Made by a program: the position numbers and the translations under genes | Virus genome (UHGV): UHGV-1347164 | Source: a virus | Length of the DNA stretch: 14,343 nucleotides | Reading direction: 5' to 3' (one strand) | The notes under the pieces: generated by a model | Told to the model about the DNA's origin: nothing | Databases searched by the model: none | Seen by the model: only the letters and a program-made list of their open reading frames with translations | Shown here: piece by piece, positions 3 to 14,343 of the stretch | How the letters are laid out: the number at the start of each line of letters is the position of its first letter | Numbering within the stretch: position 1 is the first letter of the stretch

Positions 3-1271
3 CGCCAGATCGGCGCGACCTTTTACTTTGCCCGTGAAGCCCTGATTGACGCCCTGCTTACCGGACGTAACCAGATTTTCCTTTCTGCCAGTAAGGCACA
101 GGCTCACGTCTTTAAGCAGTACATCATCGACTTCGCCAAAGAAGTCGAGGTGGAGCTGAAAGGTGATCCGATAGTGCTTCCTGACGGGGCCACGCTTTAC
201 TTCCTCGGCACCAATGCCCGCACGGCCCAGAGTTACCACGGCAACCTGTATCTGGATGAATATTTCTGGATCCCGAAATTCCAGGAGCTGCGCAAAGTGG
301 CTTCCGGTATGGCTATTCACAAGAAATGGCGGCAGACCTATTTTTCCACGCCATCCAGCCTGACACACAGTGCTTATCCGTTCTGGTCCGGTGCGCTGTT
401 CAACCGTGGGCGCAACAAAGCCGATAAGGTGGACATCGACCTGTCCCACAGCAATCTGGCCCCCGGCCTGCTGTGCGCAGACGGGCAATACCGCCAGATA
501 GTCACCGTGGAAGATGCGGTGCGCGGCGGCTGTAACCTGTTCGACCTCGACCAGCTACGCATGGAATACAGCCCGGACGAATATCAGAACCTGCTGATGT
601 GCGAGTTCGTGGACGATCTCGCGTCCGTGTTCCCGCTCAGCGAACTGCAGGCGTGCATGGTGGACAGCTGGGAAGTCTGGACCGACTTTCATGCACTGGC
701 CCTGCGCCCGTTTGGCTGGCGCGAGGTGTGGATCGGTTATGACCCGGCAAAAGGTACGCAGAACGGCGACAGCGCCGGATGCGTGGTGGTGGCACCGCCA
801 GCCGTGTCAGGCGGTAAGTTTCGCATTCTTGAGCGTCACCAGTGGCGCGGGATGGACTTCCGCGCCCAGGCTGATGCAATCAAAAAACTGACCGAGCAGT
901 ACAACGTGACCTATATCGGCATCGACTCGACGGGTGTCGGTCACGGGGTTTACGAGAACGTGAAAGCGTTTTTTCCAGCCGTCCGGGAGTTTGTCTACAA
1001 CCCCAACGTTAAAAACGCCCTGGTACTCAAGGCCTACGACATTATCAGCCACCGCCGTCTGGAGTTTGACGCCGGACACACCGACATTGCGCAGTCATTC
1101 ATGGCAATCCGTCGCGCCACCACCGCCAGCGGCAACCGCCCGACCTATGAAGCCAGCCGCAGCGAAGAAGCCAGCCACGCCGATCTGGCCTGGGCAACGA
1201 TGCACGCATTGTTTAACGAACCGCTGCAGGGCGAATCCGCCAATACCAGCAATATTGTGGAGATTTTTTGA
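3..1271 (+). CDS. P: Terminase large (ATPase) subunit, P2 gpP-like; 5-prime partial, open reading frame continues to the window edge
   Basis: Frame of ORF 150..1271 is open with no stop back to position 3 (translation begins RQIGATFYFAREAL...). Large-terminase-like protein immediately upstream of a portal gene, with its TGA overlapping the portal ATG (TGATG at 1269-1273). The product is recognised from family resemblance, not from a search. Confidence 0.8.
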   Translation, partial: RQIGATFYFAREALIDALLTGRNQIFLSASKAQAHVFKQYIIDFAKEVEVELKGDPIVLPDGATLYFLGTNARTAQSYHGNLYLDEYFWIPKFQELRKVASGMAIHKKWRQTYFSTPSSLTHSAYPFWSGALFNRGRNKADKVDIDLSHSNLAPGLLCADGQYRQIVTVEDAVRGGCNLFDLDQLRMEYSPDEYQNLLMCEFVDDLASVFPLSELQACMVDSWEVWTDFHALALRPFGWREVWIGYDPAKGTQNGDSAGCVVVAPPAVSGGKFRILERHQWRGMDFRAQADAIKKLTEQYNVTYIGIDSTGVGHGVYENVKAFFPAVREFVYNPNVKNALVLKAYDIISHRRLEFDAGHTDIAQSFMAIRRATTASGNRPTYEASRSEEASHADLAWATMHALFNEPLQGESANTSNIVEIF

Positions 1272-2317
1272 TGGGAAAGAGTAAGAAGAACCGCGCTGCG
1301 GCGACGAAACAGATCCAGCTTAAAAGTCAAACTACAGCCGAAGCATTCAGCTTCGGCGATCCCGTTCCTGTTCTGGACCGCCGAGAACTGCTGGACTATG
1401 TGGAATGCGTACAGACAGATCGCTGGTATGAGCCGCCAGTAAGCTTTGACGGACTGGCGCGCACCTTCCGCGCCGCCGTGCATCACAGTTCACCAATTGC
1501 GGTGAAATGCAACATTCTGACCAGTACCTACATCCCTCACCCGCTGCTCAGCCAGCAGGCTTTTTCACGTTTTGTGCAGGACTATCTGGTATTTGGTAAC
1601 GCCTACCTGGAGAAACGCACGAACCGCTTCGGTGAAGTTATCGCCCTTGAGCCTGCTCTGGCAAAATACACCCGACGCGGGTTAGACCTGGATACCTACT
1701 GGTTTGTGCAATACGGTATGACAACCCAGCCGTATCAGTTCACGAAAGGCAGCATTTTTCATCTGATGGAACCGGACATCAACCAGGAGATCTACGGCCT
1801 GCCAGGTTATCTTTCTGCCATTCCATCAGCCCTGCTCAACGAGTCCGCCACGCTGTTCCGCCGGAAGTATTATATTAACGGCAGTCATGCAGGCTTCATC
1901 ATGTACATGACCGATGCCGCGCAGAACCAGGAGGATGTGAACAACCTCCGCAATGCAATGAAAAGTGCCAAAGGGCCAGGCAACTTCCGCAACCTGTTTA
2001 TGTACTCTCCTAACGGCAAAAAGGACGGGCTTCAGATTATCCCGTTGTCAGAAGTCGCGGCGAAGGATGAGTTTCTGAATATCAAGAACGTGAGCCGGGA
2101 CGACATGATGGCGGCACACCGTGTGCCGCCGCAAATGATGGGGATAATGCCTAATAATGTTGGGGGCTTTGGTGATGTGGAGAAGGCTAGTCGTGTTTTT
2201 GTCCGCAACGAACTGATGCCCCTGCAGAAACAGCTACAAGAACTTAACTATTGGCTAGGCGAAGAAGCAATACGCTTTGATGCCTACTCCCTAAATTTCA
2301 CAAACGATTCTTTTTGA
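1271..2317 (+). CDS. Q: Portal protein, P2 gpQ-like
   Basis: About 348 aa from the ATG at 1271 (the track starts 3 nt earlier at a TTG). Size and position after the terminase gene match the P2-family P-Q operon. GC-rich like the rest of the backbone. Confidence 0.8.
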   Translation: MGKSKKNRAAATKQIQLKSQTTAEAFSFGDPVPVLDRRELLDYVECVQTDRWYEPPVSFDGLARTFRAAVHHSSPIAVKCNILTSTYIPHPLLSQQAFSRFVQDYLVFGNAYLEKRTNRFGEVIALEPALAKYTRRGLDLDTYWFVQYGMTTQPYQFTKGSIFHLMEPDINQEIYGLPGYLSAIPSALLNESATLFRRKYYINGSHAGFIMYMTDAAQNQEDVNNLRNAMKSAKGPGNFRNLFMYSPNGKKDGLQIIPLSEVAAKDEFLNIKNVSRDDMMAAHRVPPQMMGIMPNNVGGFGDVEKASRVFVRNELMPLQKQLQELNYWLGEEAIRFDAYSLNFTNDSF

Positions 2318-5092: not shown

Positions 5093-5326
5093 TTAATGCA
5101 GCCAGCTGTCGTCCTCCCACACCTTCTGCATAATTTTCATCACTTGTTTTCTTTCTTCATCCAGTTGCAGTCCGGTTAGTTCCACACCGTTAGAGCTACC
5201 TTTGCGAATGCGAATTACCGTTTTGGGATACAGGGGGCGCAGATTGCGGTAAAGCTCGGATTCAAGTGCGTCCAGGGTAGACTGGCTAATCTTCTGCTCT
5301 TTATCGATCATTATTTCAATGCGCAT
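5093..5326 (-). CDS. dinI: DinI-family protein (SOS-inducible RecA modulator homologue), about 77 aa from the internal ATG
   Basis: From Met25 of track ORF 5093..5398 the protein reads MRIEIMIDKEQ...DALESEL...KIMQKVWEDDSW, which aligns by eye with E. coli DinI (MRIEVTIAK...DALAGEL...ETWESADDW). A GAGGTG Shine-Dalgarno sits 6 nt upstream of this ATG and overlaps the stop of the preceding ORF. Confidence 0.7.
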   Translation of the reverse strand: MRIEIMIDKEQKISQSTLDALESELYRNLRPLYPKTVIRIRKGSSNGVELTGLQLDEERKQVMKIMQKVWEDDSWLH

Positions 5327-5336
5327 AAAAGTCACC

Positions 5337-5525
5337 TCAGCTGATGACATCCATTGAGCGGTTGTATTCGTGGCTTCTGATTTTTGCCATGAGTTCATCA
5401 GTCAATTCAGAAACCCACTGCAGAGCCAGCCCCTTCTCTTCATCACTACACTCACTAGCCGCTACAAGCTTAAGAAAAAAATCAATGCGCTGGAGCTTCA
5501 AAGACTCCAAAAAATAGTCCTGCAT
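5337..5525 (-). CDS. Hypothetical small protein (62 aa), first gene of a putative LexA-regulated operon; candidate Tum-like antirepressor component
   Basis: ATG at 5525-5523 is preceded by GGAGG (GGAGGaaaaATG). The track's longer 96-aa version starts at a TTG and would run through the LexA box and promoter, so the shorter form is preferred. Its TGA stop is embedded in the Shine-Dalgarno of the DinI-like gene, suggesting translational coupling. Confidence 0.5.
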   Translation of the reverse strand: MQDYFLESLKLQRIDFFLKLVAASECSDEEKGLALQWVSELTDELMAKIRSHEYNRSMDVIS

Positions 5526-9984: not shown

Positions 9985-10494
9985 TCACAGCAAACCGAAT
10001 GAAGCACCGAGGCCAGTCACGGTATCAACTGCACTCGCCATCGCAGGATTAGCCTGTAAACGGGCCTGCAATGAAACAGCAGCCAGCGCCATCAGTCGTG
10101 TTACAGAGTTAATGCTGCTGATAGCATCACGACGACCTGCACTGGTTTTTACATCGCCAGATACCGCACCTGCAGCAACACGCCCGATCTCTGCGGTTGC
10201 ACTCATGACGTAATGCGGCAGTTTCTCTTTTGCCACCTCATTAATCGGTACGCATGGCAGGCAGTGAATCTGAGCCAGAAAACCATCTACCAGCGTTGAA
10301 TCTTCAGTCAGATCGGTAAGCAGCCAGATTTCTGGTGCGGTTAATAAATGAGGCTGAGCTGGGTTCAGCTTGTTCCGCAGAATCTGCACATTCATGCCTG
10401 CACGTTCTGCCAGTTGCACCAAGTTGTGGCGCAACGCGAATGTACGACAGGCTTCGTCAAAATGTGGATGTTTGGAAACTTGGTAATCAAACAT
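9985..10494 (-). CDS. cII: CII-type transcriptional activator of lysogeny establishment (phage 186 CII-like)
   Basis: From the ATG at 10494 the protein begins [15 protein letters not shown]... and is 169 aa. This closely resembles phage 186 CII as I recall it, which has the same length. The track ORF starts 3 codons upstream at a TTG. Confidence 0.7.
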
Positions 10495-10557
10495 GGTTTT
10501 CAACTCCGAACTTATCGCAAAATCGAACTCAGTGTCTTAATGCGAAATAGACATCTA

Positions 10558-10761
10558 TTAAGCAGACAAAGCATCAACAGTCAGAGCAGCCAGGTTAATC
10601 ATTACCTTTTCACGTTTTTTGTCTTTACGAAGACGATGACGAGGTAGTCGGCCATCAGCCAACATGTCGTTAATCGTATCAATAGAAAGGCCTGTCAGTT
10701 CGCTATAACGTTCGATCGTGACATGGGGTGTATTCAGAGTAATTGAAATGTTAGGTGTCAT
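10558..10761 (-). CDS. apl: Apl/Cox-like excisionase and switch regulator (Xis/AlpA-type HTH)
   Basis: First gene of the leftward early operon, immediately upstream of cII. Sequence YSELTGLSIDTINDMLADGRLP resembles an AlpA/Xis-type helix-turn-helix. Start taken as the ATG at 10761 (MTPNISITL), which has AAGGAA upstream; the track's longer form begins at a TTG, so the true start is uncertain. Confidence 0.55.
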   Translation of the reverse strand: MTPNISITLNTPHVTIERYSELTGLSIDTINDMLADGRLPRHRLRKDKKREKVMINLAALTVDALSA

Positions 10762-10905: not shown

Positions 10906-11481
10906 ATGGATTTCAGCAGCGGTGGTAAGAAAGTCATTGAACGTCTAGTTGAGGCGTATGGGTTCTCTACTAGACAGGCTCTTTGCGATCACTTGGGAGT
11001 ATCCAAGAGCACTATGGCTACACGTTACATGCGAGACATCTTCCCTGCAGATTGGGTTTTGCAATGTGCTATCGAAACTGGTTATTCACTAGAATGGTTG
11101 TCATTCGGTATAGGTGATAAAAATATTTCAAATACAAATGCGCAAATTTTAGTACCAAAGAAAAAATTAATTTCTGGAACACTAATTGAAGATGGGGCAT
11201 ATGTTTTTGATAAAGCATTCTTACCTGAAAAAATATGTAACCCATTCATCATTGAAGATCTGGATAACGAATATATATGTAGTTTTGAATATGATGATAT
11301 AAGCGATGGATTGTGGCTAATAGGTATCGACGAAAAAATTTCGGTCCGAACCCTGACCCGCTTACCTAATAACAGATTATATGTTGAAGGAGGAAATCGT
11401 GGTTTTGAGTGTTCTAGAGACGAAATACAGATTGTTGGAATTGTGTGGTGTTGCATACTAAGAAGAGCAGAAAAATTTTAA
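10906..11481 (+). CDS. cI: Immunity repressor CI (186 CI-like, N-terminal HTH; no obvious S24 Ser-Lys autocleavage motif)
   Basis: 191 aa, ATG at 10906 with GGAG 5 nt upstream. Divergent from apl-cII across a 144-bp switch region. N-terminal HTH-like segment (TRQALCDHLGVSKSTMATRYM); C-terminal part ends in a LexA/CI-like beta-rich tail (NRLYVEGGNRGFECSRDEIQIVGIV) without a GDSM-type serine motif. The C-terminal half is AT-rich. Confidence 0.65.
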   Translation: MDFSSGGKKVIERLVEAYGFSTRQALCDHLGVSKSTMATRYMRDIFPADWVLQCAIETGYSLEWLSFGIGDKNISNTNAQILVPKKKLISGTLIEDGAYVFDKAFLPEKICNPFIIEDLDNEYICSFEYDDISDGLWLIGIDEKISVRTLTRLPNNRLYVEGGNRGFECSRDEIQIVGIVWCCILRRAEKF

Positions 11482-11512
11482 CACACAATATATTAAATAA
11501 CTGGAGTTCTAA

Positions 11513-12844
11513 ATGCCTATTGAATATACGTTTGATTATCGTGACGAGTTCCTTCGTAAGCCTATTGCTGAAAAATTAATATCGCTACTTGACTCTGATA
11601 TTAACTTATCTCCACTGGTTATAGATGGCGGATGGGGCACGGGGAAAACAGAGTTTTGCAAAAAAGTTGCAAATCTAATTGAAAGCAATAATCAAAAACA
11701 TAAAGTAGTTTACATTGATGCTTTCGCTGAAGATCATAATGATGCCCCAATTTTGACGTTAATGGCTGGTGTTGCTGCACTTCTTCCCGAAAATGAACGA
11801 AAGGAGTTAATAAATAAAACACTTCCAGCAATACGTTTTGGTTTGAAAACCATTTTCAAAGCAGGCACTGGATGGGTGTTAAAACAAAATGCAGATGACA
11901 TTGTTGATGGCTTCGAAGATGCTATCAAAGAAGCAACTTCGAGTGCAATTGACAGTACAATTGAAACATTATTAGACGATCATATAGAGGCGCAGAAAAA
12001 CATCGAGACACTGAGAAGTACAATATCGCATCTTACAGAGGAATATAAAATAACGATTTTTATAGACGAACTGGACAGATGTAAACCTACATTCGCTCTT
12101 TCAATCATAGAAAATATCAAACACATTTTTGAAATAAAAAATTTAAATTTTGTATTGGTTGCAAAGACTCAACAACTCAAGGCATCAATAAGGCATCTGT
12201 ATGGTTTATCCATAAATGCAGATCAGTATTTAGACAAATTCATTAAGTTTACATTTGTATTGCCAGATACATATAAACCAGATAACTATACACCTGCATA
12301 CGCATCTGTTGCTTTATGGGGAATATTAAAAAATGATTCTCAAAAACTGCAAGAAGTAGACGAATCATGCGGGCATATCATAAAAACGATAATACAAAGG
12401 GCTAAGTTGTCTTTACGTGAAGTAGAAACATTATCACGCCACTTTGAAATATATCAGGTGCTATCTCAATCTGGAATTGGTCCAGGGAAAGTATTTGGTT
12501 ATTCATTATATCGAATGTTAGGGGTAATATTATACTCTCTAAATCGCCCTTTGGCATTAAGTTATCTAGATAATTCTGTGGATGCAGAAAGCATTATCAA
12601 AACCTTAGGCTTTGAATATTTAAGTTACGATGAAGATATTTATAGGATAGATAATACTGAATGTGCTATTTATGGGATCGTACTGGACTATATTGATACA
12701 ACATCTCCATTCTTTATAAAAGATGATGAAACCAGAAGAAAATGGACTGAACGTGCTACCTATGATTTCTTTCAAAACGGCTTAGACGCAGTGCCTCCCC
12801 GAACACTTGTTTCGTCCACCATTGAAGCTTTAATGTTGAACTAA
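11513..12844 (+). CDS. KAP-family P-loop NTPase (candidate prophage-encoded defence or lysogenic-conversion gene)
   Basis: 443 aa with Walker A GGWGTGKT and the KAP-type Walker B IFIDELDRC, separated by a moderately hydrophobic segment (APILTLMAGVAALLP...). GGAG 6 nt upstream of the ATG. Strongly AT-rich; starts 31 bp after the cI stop and ends 80 bp before int. Confidence 0.8.
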   Translation: MPIEYTFDYRDEFLRKPIAEKLISLLDSDINLSPLVIDGGWGTGKTEFCKKVANLIESNNQKHKVVYIDAFAEDHNDAPILTLMAGVAALLPENERKELINKTLPAIRFGLKTIFKAGTGWVLKQNADDIVDGFEDAIKEATSSAIDSTIETLLDDHIEAQKNIETLRSTISHLTEEYKITIFIDELDRCKPTFALSIIENIKHIFEIKNLNFVLVAKTQQLKASIRHLYGLSINADQYLDKFIKFTFVLPDTYKPDNYTPAYASVALWGILKNDSQKLQEVDESCGHIIKTIIQRAKLSLREVETLSRHFEIYQVLSQSGIGPGKVFGYSLYRMLGVILYSLNRPLALSYLDNSVDAESIIKTLGFEYLSYDEDIYRIDNTECAIYGIVLDYIDTTSPFFIKDDETRRKWTERATYDFFQNGLDAVPPRTLVSSTIEALMLN

Positions 12845-12871
12845 AGATGTATTATTGACTGATTTCATACA

Positions 12872-12900
12872 TTGACACTGGTTATACATACAGTAAAAAT
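12872..12900 (+). promoter_or_regulatory. Candidate promoter upstream of int (TTGACA, about 17 nt, AAAAAT/TAAAAA)
   Basis: Consensus -35 TTGACA at 12872-12877 and an A/T-rich -10-like hexamer at about 12894-12900, roughly 25 nt upstream of the int ATG. Unverified pattern match. Confidence 0.25.
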
Positions 12901-12924
12901 GTTCTCCACTGGAGGGCATTTTTT

Positions 12925-13956
12925 ATGGCAGTACGAAAACTCACCACAGGAAAATGGCTTTGCGAATGTTACCCCGCCGGACGTAGTGGGCGTCGTGTAC
13001 GTAAACAATTCGCCACCAAAGGCGAAGCACTGGCTTTTGAGCGTCACACGATGGAAGAAACCGAAGCAAAGCCCTGGCTGGGTGAATCCGTGGATCGTCG
13101 AACACTGAAAGACGTGGTTGAGCTATGGTTCAAACTACATGGTAAATCTCTGACAGCTGGGCAGCATGTCTATGACAAATTGCTGTTGATGGTTGACGCT
13201 CTGGGCAATCCTCTTGCAACCGATCTCACCTCTAAAATGTTTGCCCACTATCGAGATAAACGCCTGACAGGTGAGATCTACTTCAGCGAGAAATGGAAGA
13301 AAGGAGCAAGCCCGGTCACCATTAACCTGGAGCAAAGCTATCTAAGTAGTGTTTTTAGCGAACTATCCCGCCTGGGCGAATGGTCGTATCCAAACCCACT
13401 GGAGAACATGCGAAAATTCACCATCGCAGAAAAAGAGATGGCATGGCTTACCCATGAGCAGATTGTTGAACTGCTGGATGATTGCAAACGTCAGGACCCA
13501 ATTCTGGCACTGGTAGTCAAGATATGCTTAAGCACAGGCGCACGCTGGCGAGAAGCAATAAACCTTACCCGATCACAGGTGACCAAATACCGAATTACCT
13601 TTGTAAGAACGAAGGGGAAGAAAAACAGAAGCATCCCTATCAGTAAAGAGCTTTATGAAGAGATCATGGCGCTTGATGGGTTCAATTTCTTCACAGACTG
13701 CTATTTTCAATTTTTATCCGTGATGGAAAAAACGTCTATCGTGCTCCCTCGCGGTCAACTGACACACGTTCTGCGCCATACGTTTGCGGCGCACTTCATG
13801 ATGTCGGGTGGAAATATCCTGGCCTTACAAAAAATTCTCGGGCATCACGATATAAAAATGACTATGCGTTACGCACATCTGGCACCGGATCACCTTGAAA
13901 CTGCATTACGGTTTAATCCGCTGGCAACACTACCAACATCAATAGCAAGTTTTTGA
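12925..13956 (+). CDS. int: Tyrosine site-specific integrase (P2/186 Int-like)
   Basis: 343 aa. The C-terminal catalytic region LTHVLRHTFAAHFMMSGGNILALQKILGHHDIKMTMRYAHLAPDH contains the R...H-x-x-R...Y pattern of tyrosine recombinases. GGAGGG Shine-Dalgarno upstream of the ATG. Position at the end of the lysogeny operon matches P2/186. Confidence 0.85.
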   Translation: MAVRKLTTGKWLCECYPAGRSGRRVRKQFATKGEALAFERHTMEETEAKPWLGESVDRRTLKDVVELWFKLHGKSLTAGQHVYDKLLLMVDALGNPLATDLTSKMFAHYRDKRLTGEIYFSEKWKKGASPVTINLEQSYLSSVFSELSRLGEWSYPNPLENMRKFTIAEKEMAWLTHEQIVELLDDCKRQDPILALVVKICLSTGARWREAINLTRSQVTKYRITFVRTKGKKNRSIPISKELYEEIMALDGFNFFTDCYFQFLSVMEKTSIVLPRGQLTHVLRHTFAAHFMMSGGNILALQKILGHHDIKMTMRYAHLAPDHLETALRFNPLATLPTSIASF

Positions 13957-14014
13957 AAATGCGTATTTTGCCCTGTTGAGCTAATATTCCTTTTTTTCAC
14001 ATGGAGCACTATCA

Positions 14015-14284
14015 ATGAATAAGTTTCAGCATCAGGGAGCGGAATTGCGCAACAGAGCAAAAGAATTGGCTTTATCCGTACTTAAAACTCACCCAGATGC
14101 CCAAAAAAACGGCAACGGCGTTAAGCAAGCTGAGGTATTTCGTCTAAGCGGCCTCGATTGGGGAGAAAAACGGAAAGCAACAAGTTCGAACCAACAATAT
14201 TGGGTTGTTGCACTATTGCGTGAACTAGAAGAGGAAGGGTTAGTCGAACAGATTGAAGATAGAGGCCCCTGGCGTCTAAGGTAA
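14015..14284 (+). CDS. Hypothetical protein (89 aa) beyond int; either flanking host DNA or another element
   Basis: Clean ATG with GGAG about 9 nt upstream. No recognisable motif; the C-terminal part (QYWVVALLRELEEEGLVEQIEDRGPW) could be winged-helix-like. Lies after the expected att junction. Confidence 0.4.
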   Translation: MNKFQHQGAELRNRAKELALSVLKTHPDAQKNGNGVKQAEVFRLSGLDWGEKRKATSSNQQYWVVALLRELEEEGLVEQIEDRGPWRLR

Positions 14285-14343
14285 AACAAGTGGCGACAAA
14301 GTGGCGGCAGCGGTTGGCATTACCCCGTAATAACCACCACTGA

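Follow-up and report, generated by a model that had tools for sequence, protein, structure and literature searches.

The window analysed here, by which we mean the whole 14,343-nt stretch of the viral genome UHGV-1347164, covers the right-hand portion of an E. coli prophage that belongs to the P2/186-like Peduoviridae and, among these, is 186-like. On its plus strand, the cI repressor gene is followed by an open reading frame (ORF) for a KAP-family P-loop NTPase of 443 amino acids (aa), referred to here as the KAP ORF, and by the integrase gene (int); the coordinates of these and all other features are given in Table 1. An annotation made earlier from the sequence alone, called the original prediction below, had singled out the KAP ORF as the best candidate in the window for an anti-phage gene.

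A KAP-family NTPase between cI and int

Assignment of the ORF to the KAP family, which the original prediction had based on the Walker motifs, was in agreement with a profile search, in which the Pfam model KAP_NTPase (PF07693) matched residues 15–315 of the protein with E 2.4e-50 and a score of 171.9 bits (cutoff 20), covering positions 1–290 of the 293 in the profile. The Walker A and Walker B motifs are both intact and conform to the KAP consensus (GxxxxGK[ST] and hhhhDE[LI]DR, respectively), and the corresponding RefSeq entry is named 'KAP family P-loop NTPase fold protein'. The ORF is a member of PDC-S20, a candidate single-gene system of PADLOC-DB v2. The PDC-S20 model PDLC04956 matched it end to end (E 1.3e-173, residues 4–442 against positions 5–448 of 450), and three more PDC-S20 sub-models matched with E values from 3e-60 to 2e-26. 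The stand-alone organisation of PDC-S20 is also found here, with the KAP ORF as the single gene between cI and int; a small ydcA-like ORF that lies upstream of the gene in some relatives also occurs without a KAP gene. The protein has 2327 homologs at E ≤ 1e-5, and its PHROGs match is a family annotated as of unknown function.

The PADLOC matches to PifA (1.4e-16) and QatA (1.2e-11) are far weaker than those to PDC-S20 and are limited to the NTPase core. PifA of the F plasmid, which is responsible for T7 exclusion, has a KAP NTPase domain like the KAP ORF and, again like it, is encoded by a single gene of a mobile element. However, only residues 35–252 of the KAP protein match the PifA profile (positions 43–255 of 720), the C-terminal parts are unrelated, and the similarity does not extend over the full length. 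The ORF is not a QatA equivalog either, as its NCBIfam QatA score is 43.7 bits against a cutoff of 600, and its neighbours are cI and int, not QatB–D.

KAP proteins reportedly have, as a rule, transmembrane helices (two or four) in the stretch of the NTPase domain that separates Walker A from Walker B. At this position the protein encoded in the window has a helical insert that is not hydrophobic, with maximum 19-residue Kyte–Doolittle means of 0.66–0.79, and no transmembrane segment was found in the whole protein, the highest 19-residue mean being 1.16 and located in the C-terminal domain. Because no 19-residue window exceeds this value, the protein lacks a membrane insert of the type usual in KAP proteins and in Tmn, and is predicted to be a soluble, cytoplasmic variant of the KAP family. 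The comparison with Tmn-type systems made in the original prediction thus had to be given up. Tmn (Gao et al. 2020) is likewise a single-gene P-loop NTPase defence system, but in Tmn, which has been described as YobI-like, Walker A is followed by transmembrane helices, whereas the KAP ORF shows neither the helices nor a profile match. The possibility of a Tmn-like membrane NTPase was rejected, since there is no hydrophobic segment and no Tmn model was among the PADLOC matches at E ≤ 0.01.

The AlphaFold2 (AF2) model of the protein has a predicted local distance difference test (pLDDT) score of 82 and a predicted template modelling (pTM) score of 0.79, with residues 108–151 below a pLDDT of 50. 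The nearest solved folds are those of the defence ATPases RdrA and BrxC. RdrA of the RADAR system acts together with RdrB, an adenosine deaminase, and the RdrB gene is absent from the KAP locus. The identity between RdrA (PDB 8fnt, 8fnu and 8hr8) and the KAP protein is 13–15%, and RdrA is ~800–850 residues long, compared with 443 here; as RdrA functions in complexes with RdrB (PDB 8hr7 and 8fnw), the KAP ORF does not belong to RADAR. One segment of the insert, residues 101–120 (positions 11813–11872; LPAIRFGLKTIFKAGTGWVLKQ), is strongly conserved, with an entropy of 1.08 bits, yet the confidence of the model is low there. This segment may serve in interactions or as a pore loop.

Comparison of 85 homologs showed that G39, W41, G42, G44 and K45 of Walker A and D185, E186, D188, R189 and C190 of Walker B are invariant, together with ~38 further residues. 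The mean column entropy is 1.43 bits in the NTPase domain and 2.67 bits in the C-terminal 128 residues. The ratio of nonsynonymous to synonymous substitution rates (dN/dS) between two KAP alleles, which share 92% protein identity, is 0.20 overall, 0.15 for the NTPase domain and 0.31 for the C-terminal domain. The KAP gene is therefore under purifying selection.

The distance of 31 bp between the cI stop codon and the start of the ORF was given correctly in the original prediction (cI ends at 11481 and the ORF begins at 11513). The two genes have the same orientation, their spacer contains a ribosome-binding site, and a scan of the stretch revealed no terminator-like site from cI through the KAP ORF to int, the 31-nt spacer included, so that the proposed co-transcription with cI is plausible. 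The adjacency of the repressor and integrase genes in P2 and 186, which the original prediction had mentioned, was also verified: cI and int overlap by 1 nt in 186, and C and int are 115 bp apart in P2. According to the annotation of phage 186, its pL/pE lysogenic operon passes cI and int to a terminator beyond the attachment site (att). Since the KAP ORF is located inside the lysogenic operon (cI, KAP, int), the protein would be made whenever cI is made, and we infer from this gene arrangement that it is expressed from pL/pE in lysogens. KAP would then be produced together with cI, and its transcription would end when the prophage goes lytic and pR takes over. Such a switch-off by pR would constitute a built-in sparing of the prophage's own lytic cycle.

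Table 1. Coordinates of features in the window (KAP ORF and lysogenic operon first, other genes below)
Feature	Position	Strand	Remarks
KAP ORF, predicted soluble KAP-family P-loop NTPase, 443 aa	11513–12844	plus	ATG start; RefSeq WP_061354257.1; PADLOC PDC-S20
Walker A, GGWGTGKT, residues 39–46	11627–11650	plus	motif intact
Helical insert, residues 93–177	11789–12043	plus	between Walker A and B; non-hydrophobic; classical KAP transmembrane-helix site
Walker B, IFIDELDRC, residues 182–190	12056–12082	plus	motif intact
Variable all-helical C-terminal domain, residues 316–443 (128 residues)	12458–12841	plus	proposed specificity/sensor module
cI repressor, 186-type	10906–11481	plus	first gene of lysogenic operon; PF07022 E 7e-29; PF16452 E 1.5e-23
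cI–KAP spacer, 31 nt	11482–11512	plus	GGAG ribosome-binding site at 11503–11506, 6 nt before ATG
Low-GC block, cI C-terminal domain and KAP gene	11082–12844	plus	from GC and homology breakpoints
Conserved int leader, right-hand anchor of cargo site	12845–12924	plus	promoter-like TTGACA-17-AAAAAT (12872–12900), 10/12; int ribosome-binding site
int, P2/186-type tyrosine integrase	12925–13956	plus	last core gene of lysogenic operon; PF24624 E 2.8e-32; PF00589 E 4.3e-22
Terminase	150–1271		
Portal	1268–2317		
GmrSD-like protein, 584 aa	2345–4099	minus	PF03235 and PF07510; PADLOC HEC-06 E 3.8e-90; GC 0.345
Acidic protein, 111 aa	4565–4900	plus	phrog_17127, function unknown; between GmrSD-like and Tum-like genes
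Tum/DinI-like protein	5093–5398	minus	phrog_189 E 1.5e-30; NCBIfam DinI model under cutoff
cII	9985–10503	minus	
apl/cox, mechanical ORF of 97 aa	10558–10851	minus	
89-aa ORF between int and att region	14015–14284	plus	indel region 13937–14286

The cI–int interval as a defence hotspot

The content of the cI–int interval was surveyed in 80 IMG/VR contigs encoding an integrase at least 98% identical to that of the window. In 45 contigs the interval contains only the ydcA-like ORF, which encodes 63 aa. The window-type KAP gene was found in three contigs, the ydcA-like ORF together with a KAP gene in three, and a third PDC-S20 KAP gene, for a protein of 505 aa, in two, so that PDC-S20 KAP proteins of three kinds are present in 8 of the surveyed contigs. 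A PD-Lambda-1-like protein of 558 aa occupies the interval in 13 contigs (PADLOC E 3e-120), a full-length Old homolog of 589 aa in six (PADLOC Old E 9e-235), and sets containing PDC-M11A in two, and proteins of unknown kind (323/324, 488, 349+201, 342+226 and 400+176 aa) are found in eight. The PD-Lambda-1 homolog is exemplified by Escherichia phage vB_EcoM-813R9 (L002:3304-4980), in which a 558-aa 'chromosome segregation ATPase' matches with PADLOC E 3e-120. The Old homologs, for example at L144:4158-5927 and also in L108, L147 and L149, combine AAA_15 with an OLD-like TOPRIM domain and lie between cI and int, not at the cos-side old locus; the presence of a full-length Old homolog here rather than at the classical old locus may be new. 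At least 12 alternative cargo sets occur among the 80 contigs, and every cargo takes up 91–96% of the interval, is on the cI/int strand and has a GC content of 0.30–0.36.

Of 5426 complete E. coli genomes, 15 contain the full cI–KAP–int arrangement, and 1134 show a match to part of the query. Copies of the KAP ORF with 100% DNA identity are present in a number of complete E. coli genomes (E2 among them), and 13 matches reach an identity of at least 99%. The prophage integrates beside rcdA (the rcdA/ybjJ attachment site), and prophages at this site with a 96% identical int have just the 63-aa ydcA-like ORF between cI and int. In other sibling prophages the same position is occupied by a different KAP protein of 483 aa or, in Klebsiella phage 4LV2017, by a 349-aa protein. 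A clean indel of ~1.3 kb, located between the ydcA-like ORF and the int leader, separates a prophage of the second KAP lineage (L008, 54% identity) from the KAP-less L003. The gene is thus polymorphic in presence and absence and represents accessory cargo, not a core gene, as the original prediction had supposed, since siblings with the same int at rcdA carry other genes or only the 63-aa ORF. Hotspot behaviour is confirmed for the rcdA-integrating E. coli/Klebsiella lineage, and the cI–int interval is a genuine defence hotspot within the lysogenic operon.

The original prediction had also stated that cI–int is not a classical P2 cargo site, which is historically correct but, in view of reports that appeared in 2022, 2024 and 2026, no longer current. 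Rousset 2022 (PMC9122126) describes a cI–int defence hotspot in K139-like P2-related (Vibrio) phages and lists KAP_NTPase cargo 69 times in its supplementary table of hotspot loci. In Egorov 2024 (10.1101/2024.10.15.618418), CI and a tail gene are the borders of a third hotspot of P2, and according to De Sousa 2026 (PMC13586616), 8% of the defence systems of P2 are found in the region from int to the primase. Vassallo 2022 (PMC9519451) covers P2 hotspots 1 and 2 only and has no KAP entry. The interval analysed here resembles the published cI–int or third P2 hotspot in its position relative to the core genes and in the swapping of unrelated defence genes between near-identical backbones. It differs in that the KAP family of the window is not singled out at cI–int in the portions of the hotspot papers that were available.

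The KAP ORF was originally described as AT-rich against the phage backbone. This is true of its GC content, which is 0.348 compared with 0.458 for the whole window and 0.47–0.58 for core genes, but the AT-rich block is not confined to the ORF and begins within cI at ~11082. The C-terminal domain of cI has a GC content of 0.328, and the value is 0.472 for both the cI N-terminal domain and int. DNA homology to sibling prophages breaks at 11081/11117 on the left (at 11081 for L003) and resumes at 12845–12867 on the right (breakpoints 12845/12865). Because the homology stops inside cI and resumes after the KAP gene, the cI C-terminal domain and the KAP gene together form one foreign low-GC block. 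In line with this, cI is a mosaic: its N-terminal helix-turn-helix part (10906–11081) is 90–97% identical to that of sibling prophages, whereas the identity of the C-terminal domain (11082–11481) is 32–45%, as determined by comparing the window with L003, L004, L002, L001, L008 and L013. Both alleles, that of the cI C-terminal domain and that of KAP, are carried by the same 15 of 5426 E. coli genomes. With the left recombination junction located inside the repressor gene, the cI C-terminal domain was swapped along with the cargo. This position of the left cargo junction may be new, as it is not mentioned in the available parts of the hotspot papers (Rousset 2022, Egorov 2024, de Sousa 2026).

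Relatives of the KAP protein with 48–54% identity are located at cI–int of 186-like prophages in E. coli (54%), Yersinia (48%) and Serratia (49%), and the recurrence of a soluble KAP family at this position in three enterobacterial genera may also be new. A further 443-aa relative, with ~65% DNA identity over half of the gene, lies between the Q antiterminator and holin genes of a lambdoid prophage of E. coli M00057 (L019:3905-5236). As the PDC-S20 KAP family is thus also found at the lambdoid Q–holin moron site, it is cargo of two unrelated prophage types. Relatives with 42–43% protein identity were found in Vibrio harveyi, beside a type I restriction-modification system on a Tn7-like island, and in Salmonella, on a primase-bearing satellite-like island next to BrxR. 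When 80 species-representative loci were searched with cI, int, cII, gpA and portal proteins of the window, three matched its P2-type proteins (one with cI, int, cII and gpA, one with gpA only and one with a weak int match). Confinement of the family to P2-like phages was rejected, since the other 77 of the 80 loci had no match to these proteins. The KAP family is a mobile, prophage- and island-borne gene.

Possible functions of the KAP ORF

We consider it reasonably likely that the KAP ORF, which is exchangeable cargo of the cI–int interval, acts as an anti-phage system of one protein, an NTPase expressed in lysogens and equipped with a variable sensor domain. This reading is based on the defence content of the same site in sibling prophages, the contexts in which the family occurs, the combination of a conserved NTPase with a variable C-terminus, the RdrA/BrxC-like fold and published KAP precedents. 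Because genes with proven anti-phage activity occupy this very position in sibling phages, the KAP ORF is a credible candidate defence gene. A defence role had been proposed in the original prediction, and it is the best reading in view of the Old and PD-Lambda-1 homologs at the same locus in siblings and of the match to the PADLOC candidate PDC-S20.

The published precedents include EF_KAP and three KAP proteins from gut metagenomes, all validated as anti-phage and composed of a KAP NTPase and an uncharacterised C-terminal region; protection by EF_KAP depends on Walker B as well as on the C-terminal region (PMC13552941). Another is Reve, a single-gene KAP system from a P4 hotspot that protects E. 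coli (PMC13586616). EF_KAP and Reve are similar to the protein studied here in that a KAP NTPase is joined to a C-terminal region without a known domain or structural relative, a likeness of domain and design. EF_KAP differs in being modelled with two transmembrane helices and a C-terminal region of 322 aa, compared with no such helices and a domain of 128 aa in the KAP ORF. Reve is probably not a PDC-S20 protein, because it comes from P4 genes described as not defence-annotated in a study that ran PADLOC 2.0.0. GiPD474, a defence ATPase of a Gifsy prophage (PMC12724215), was set aside, being ParA/MinD-like and not KAP. The hotspot, the kind of cargo and a defence role of KAP proteins are all in the literature already, and the KAP ORF belongs to a catalogued family and is not a new kind of system.

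Several observations weigh against an anti-phage role. The KAP allele is rare in E. coli (15 of 5426 complete genomes), and in E. coli VTB97432v (L181, NZ_CP178694.1) the gene is interrupted by the IS5-like element ISKpn26, the one case of disruption in the 15 genomes. In the promoter scan pL was not identified, the only sites returned being a pR-like one and the promoter-like one upstream of int; in view of the latter, the cI–KAP–int operon is a putative one. Our literature search found no paper that names or tests PDC-S20, and the PDC entries are bioinformatic candidates only. The closest structural relatives, RdrA and BrxC, function together with partner proteins, and none are encoded here. 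Finally, no match to a solved fold was obtained for the C-terminal domain, which leaves the protein with no recognisable effector domain, and no match was obtained when PDB sequences were searched with a profile.

For the mechanism we can offer a tentative guess. The protein combines a conserved NTPase module, whose oligomerising fold is like those of RdrA and BrxC, with a helical C-terminal domain that diverges fast, and the latter would recognise a component of the infecting phage. Recognition would drive ATP-dependent assembly, and the NTPase activity would then block infection, either through consumption of ATP or through an action on a phage nucleoprotein complex, which would be remodelled or sequestered. 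Since the protein contains no further enzymatic domain, the role of effector would fall to the NTPase, and the block may be abortive. Tmn, for which ATP hydrolysis and plasmolysis are given as the mechanism (as cited in PMC13552941), could serve as a model of an NTPase effector by analogy only. More doubtful is a broader proposal that a soluble KAP NTPase forms a complete immune module, with the C-terminal domain as sensor and an NTPase ring as effector acting by ATP depletion or by jamming of a nucleoprotein machine, and that cargo swaps in addition reshuffle the C-terminal domain of cI. If true, this would be an NTPase-ring-as-effector mechanism not so far described for soluble KAP proteins, and the turnover of defence cargo would be coupled to diversification of repressor oligomerisation or of sensitivity to anti-repressors.

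The position of the KAP ORF inside the lysogeny operon could also mean that the NTPase serves the prophage's own lysogeny control, where it would modulate cI, Int or the induction process, perhaps in partnership with the cI C-terminal domain, with which it shares one low-GC block and the same 15 genomes. We regard this as improbable. The linkage of the two alleles is explained by their adjacency at 31 nt, and the L008/L003 comparison shows a clean indel of the KAP gene beside homologous cI and ydcA-like genes. Moreover, the cI C-terminal domain of the KAP-less prophage (45% identity) is as close to that of the window as those of KAP-bearing prophages (32–43%). A functional coupling between KAP and the cI C-terminal domain was rejected as unsupported, given the indel and a cI similarity that does not track the presence of KAP. 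The family also occurs outside the cI/int context (at the lambdoid Q–holin site, on the Tn7/restriction-modification island and in 77 of the 80 representative loci), and the site itself houses unrelated defence genes in other prophages.

A similarly low probability is given to a role against P4-like satellites or competing P2-like phages, or as a prophage-stabilising addiction module. P4 satellites exploit P2-like phages and, according to two reports (PMC9122126 and PMC13586616), this conflict shapes P2 hotspots; cargo expressed from the lysogenic operon, as is presumed here, would suit either role. However, the sequence indicates no satellite-specific target, KAP stands alone between cI and int with no antitoxin-like partner, and homologs are found in non-P2 contexts. 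That the gene is a neutral or decaying passenger without current function, as its rarity in E. coli and the copy interrupted by an IS5-family element might suggest, is highly improbable in view of the low dN/dS overall and in the NTPase domain, the intact catalytic residues that are invariant in all 85 homologs, the full-length ORF with its identical or nearly identical copies in other genomes, and the scarcity of pseudogenes in P2/P4 defence loci reported in the 2026 survey (PMC13586616).

If the anti-phage function is confirmed, PDC-S20 will move from a PADLOC candidate to a validated defence system, and a compact, soluble KAP NTPase of 443 aa will be at hand for the study of phage arrest by proteins in which no effector can be recognised. 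The locus also shows that 186-like phages use their lysogenic operon as a platform from which defence cargo, Old and PD-Lambda-1 homologs among it, would be expressed. Current views are not overturned by the finding of the KAP ORF.

Other genes of the prophage

The GmrSD-like gene lies between the portal gene and gpA, where the classical old/tin hotspot is situated, and for this reason it is likely to be a second defence gene of the prophage, encoding a type IV restriction-like enzyme. The acidic 111-aa protein may be further cargo of that hotspot. The Tum/DinI-like gene has a counterpart in the SOS operon of phage 186, which suggests that the prophage is induced through an anti-repressor as in 186; it is probably SOS-inducible. 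This gene is followed by gpA, Dam, cII and apl/cox, and then, on the plus strand, by cI, the KAP ORF and int. The true start of apl/cox is probably at 10761, giving a protein of 67 aa, because the gene has a length of 204 bp in the RefSeq annotation of identical prophages and residue 31 of the mechanical ORF is the first to be covered by the PHROG match. With this start, a control region of 144 bp remains between cI and apl, and it contains a pR-like TTGACA-17-TAAAGT (10879 to 10851, minus strand).

The int gene shares 95–97% DNA identity with those of Klebsiella phage 4LV2017 and of E. coli prophages at rcdA. The 89-aa ORF that follows it is present in L003 and L004 and missing from L001, L002 and L005, and its position is that of Orf69 in 186; no family match was found for it in PADLOC, PHROGs or NCBIfam. 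The indel corresponds to a minor int–att cargo site that is mentioned in PMC13586616. At 14289–14310 there are two repeats containing GTGGCG (aaGTGGCGaca and aaGTGGCGgca), which are similar to the arm-type consensus of 186 Int, YAYCGCCAYTY, when the latter is reverse-complemented. Relatives without the 89-aa ORF share the final 57 nt of the window with 100% identity.

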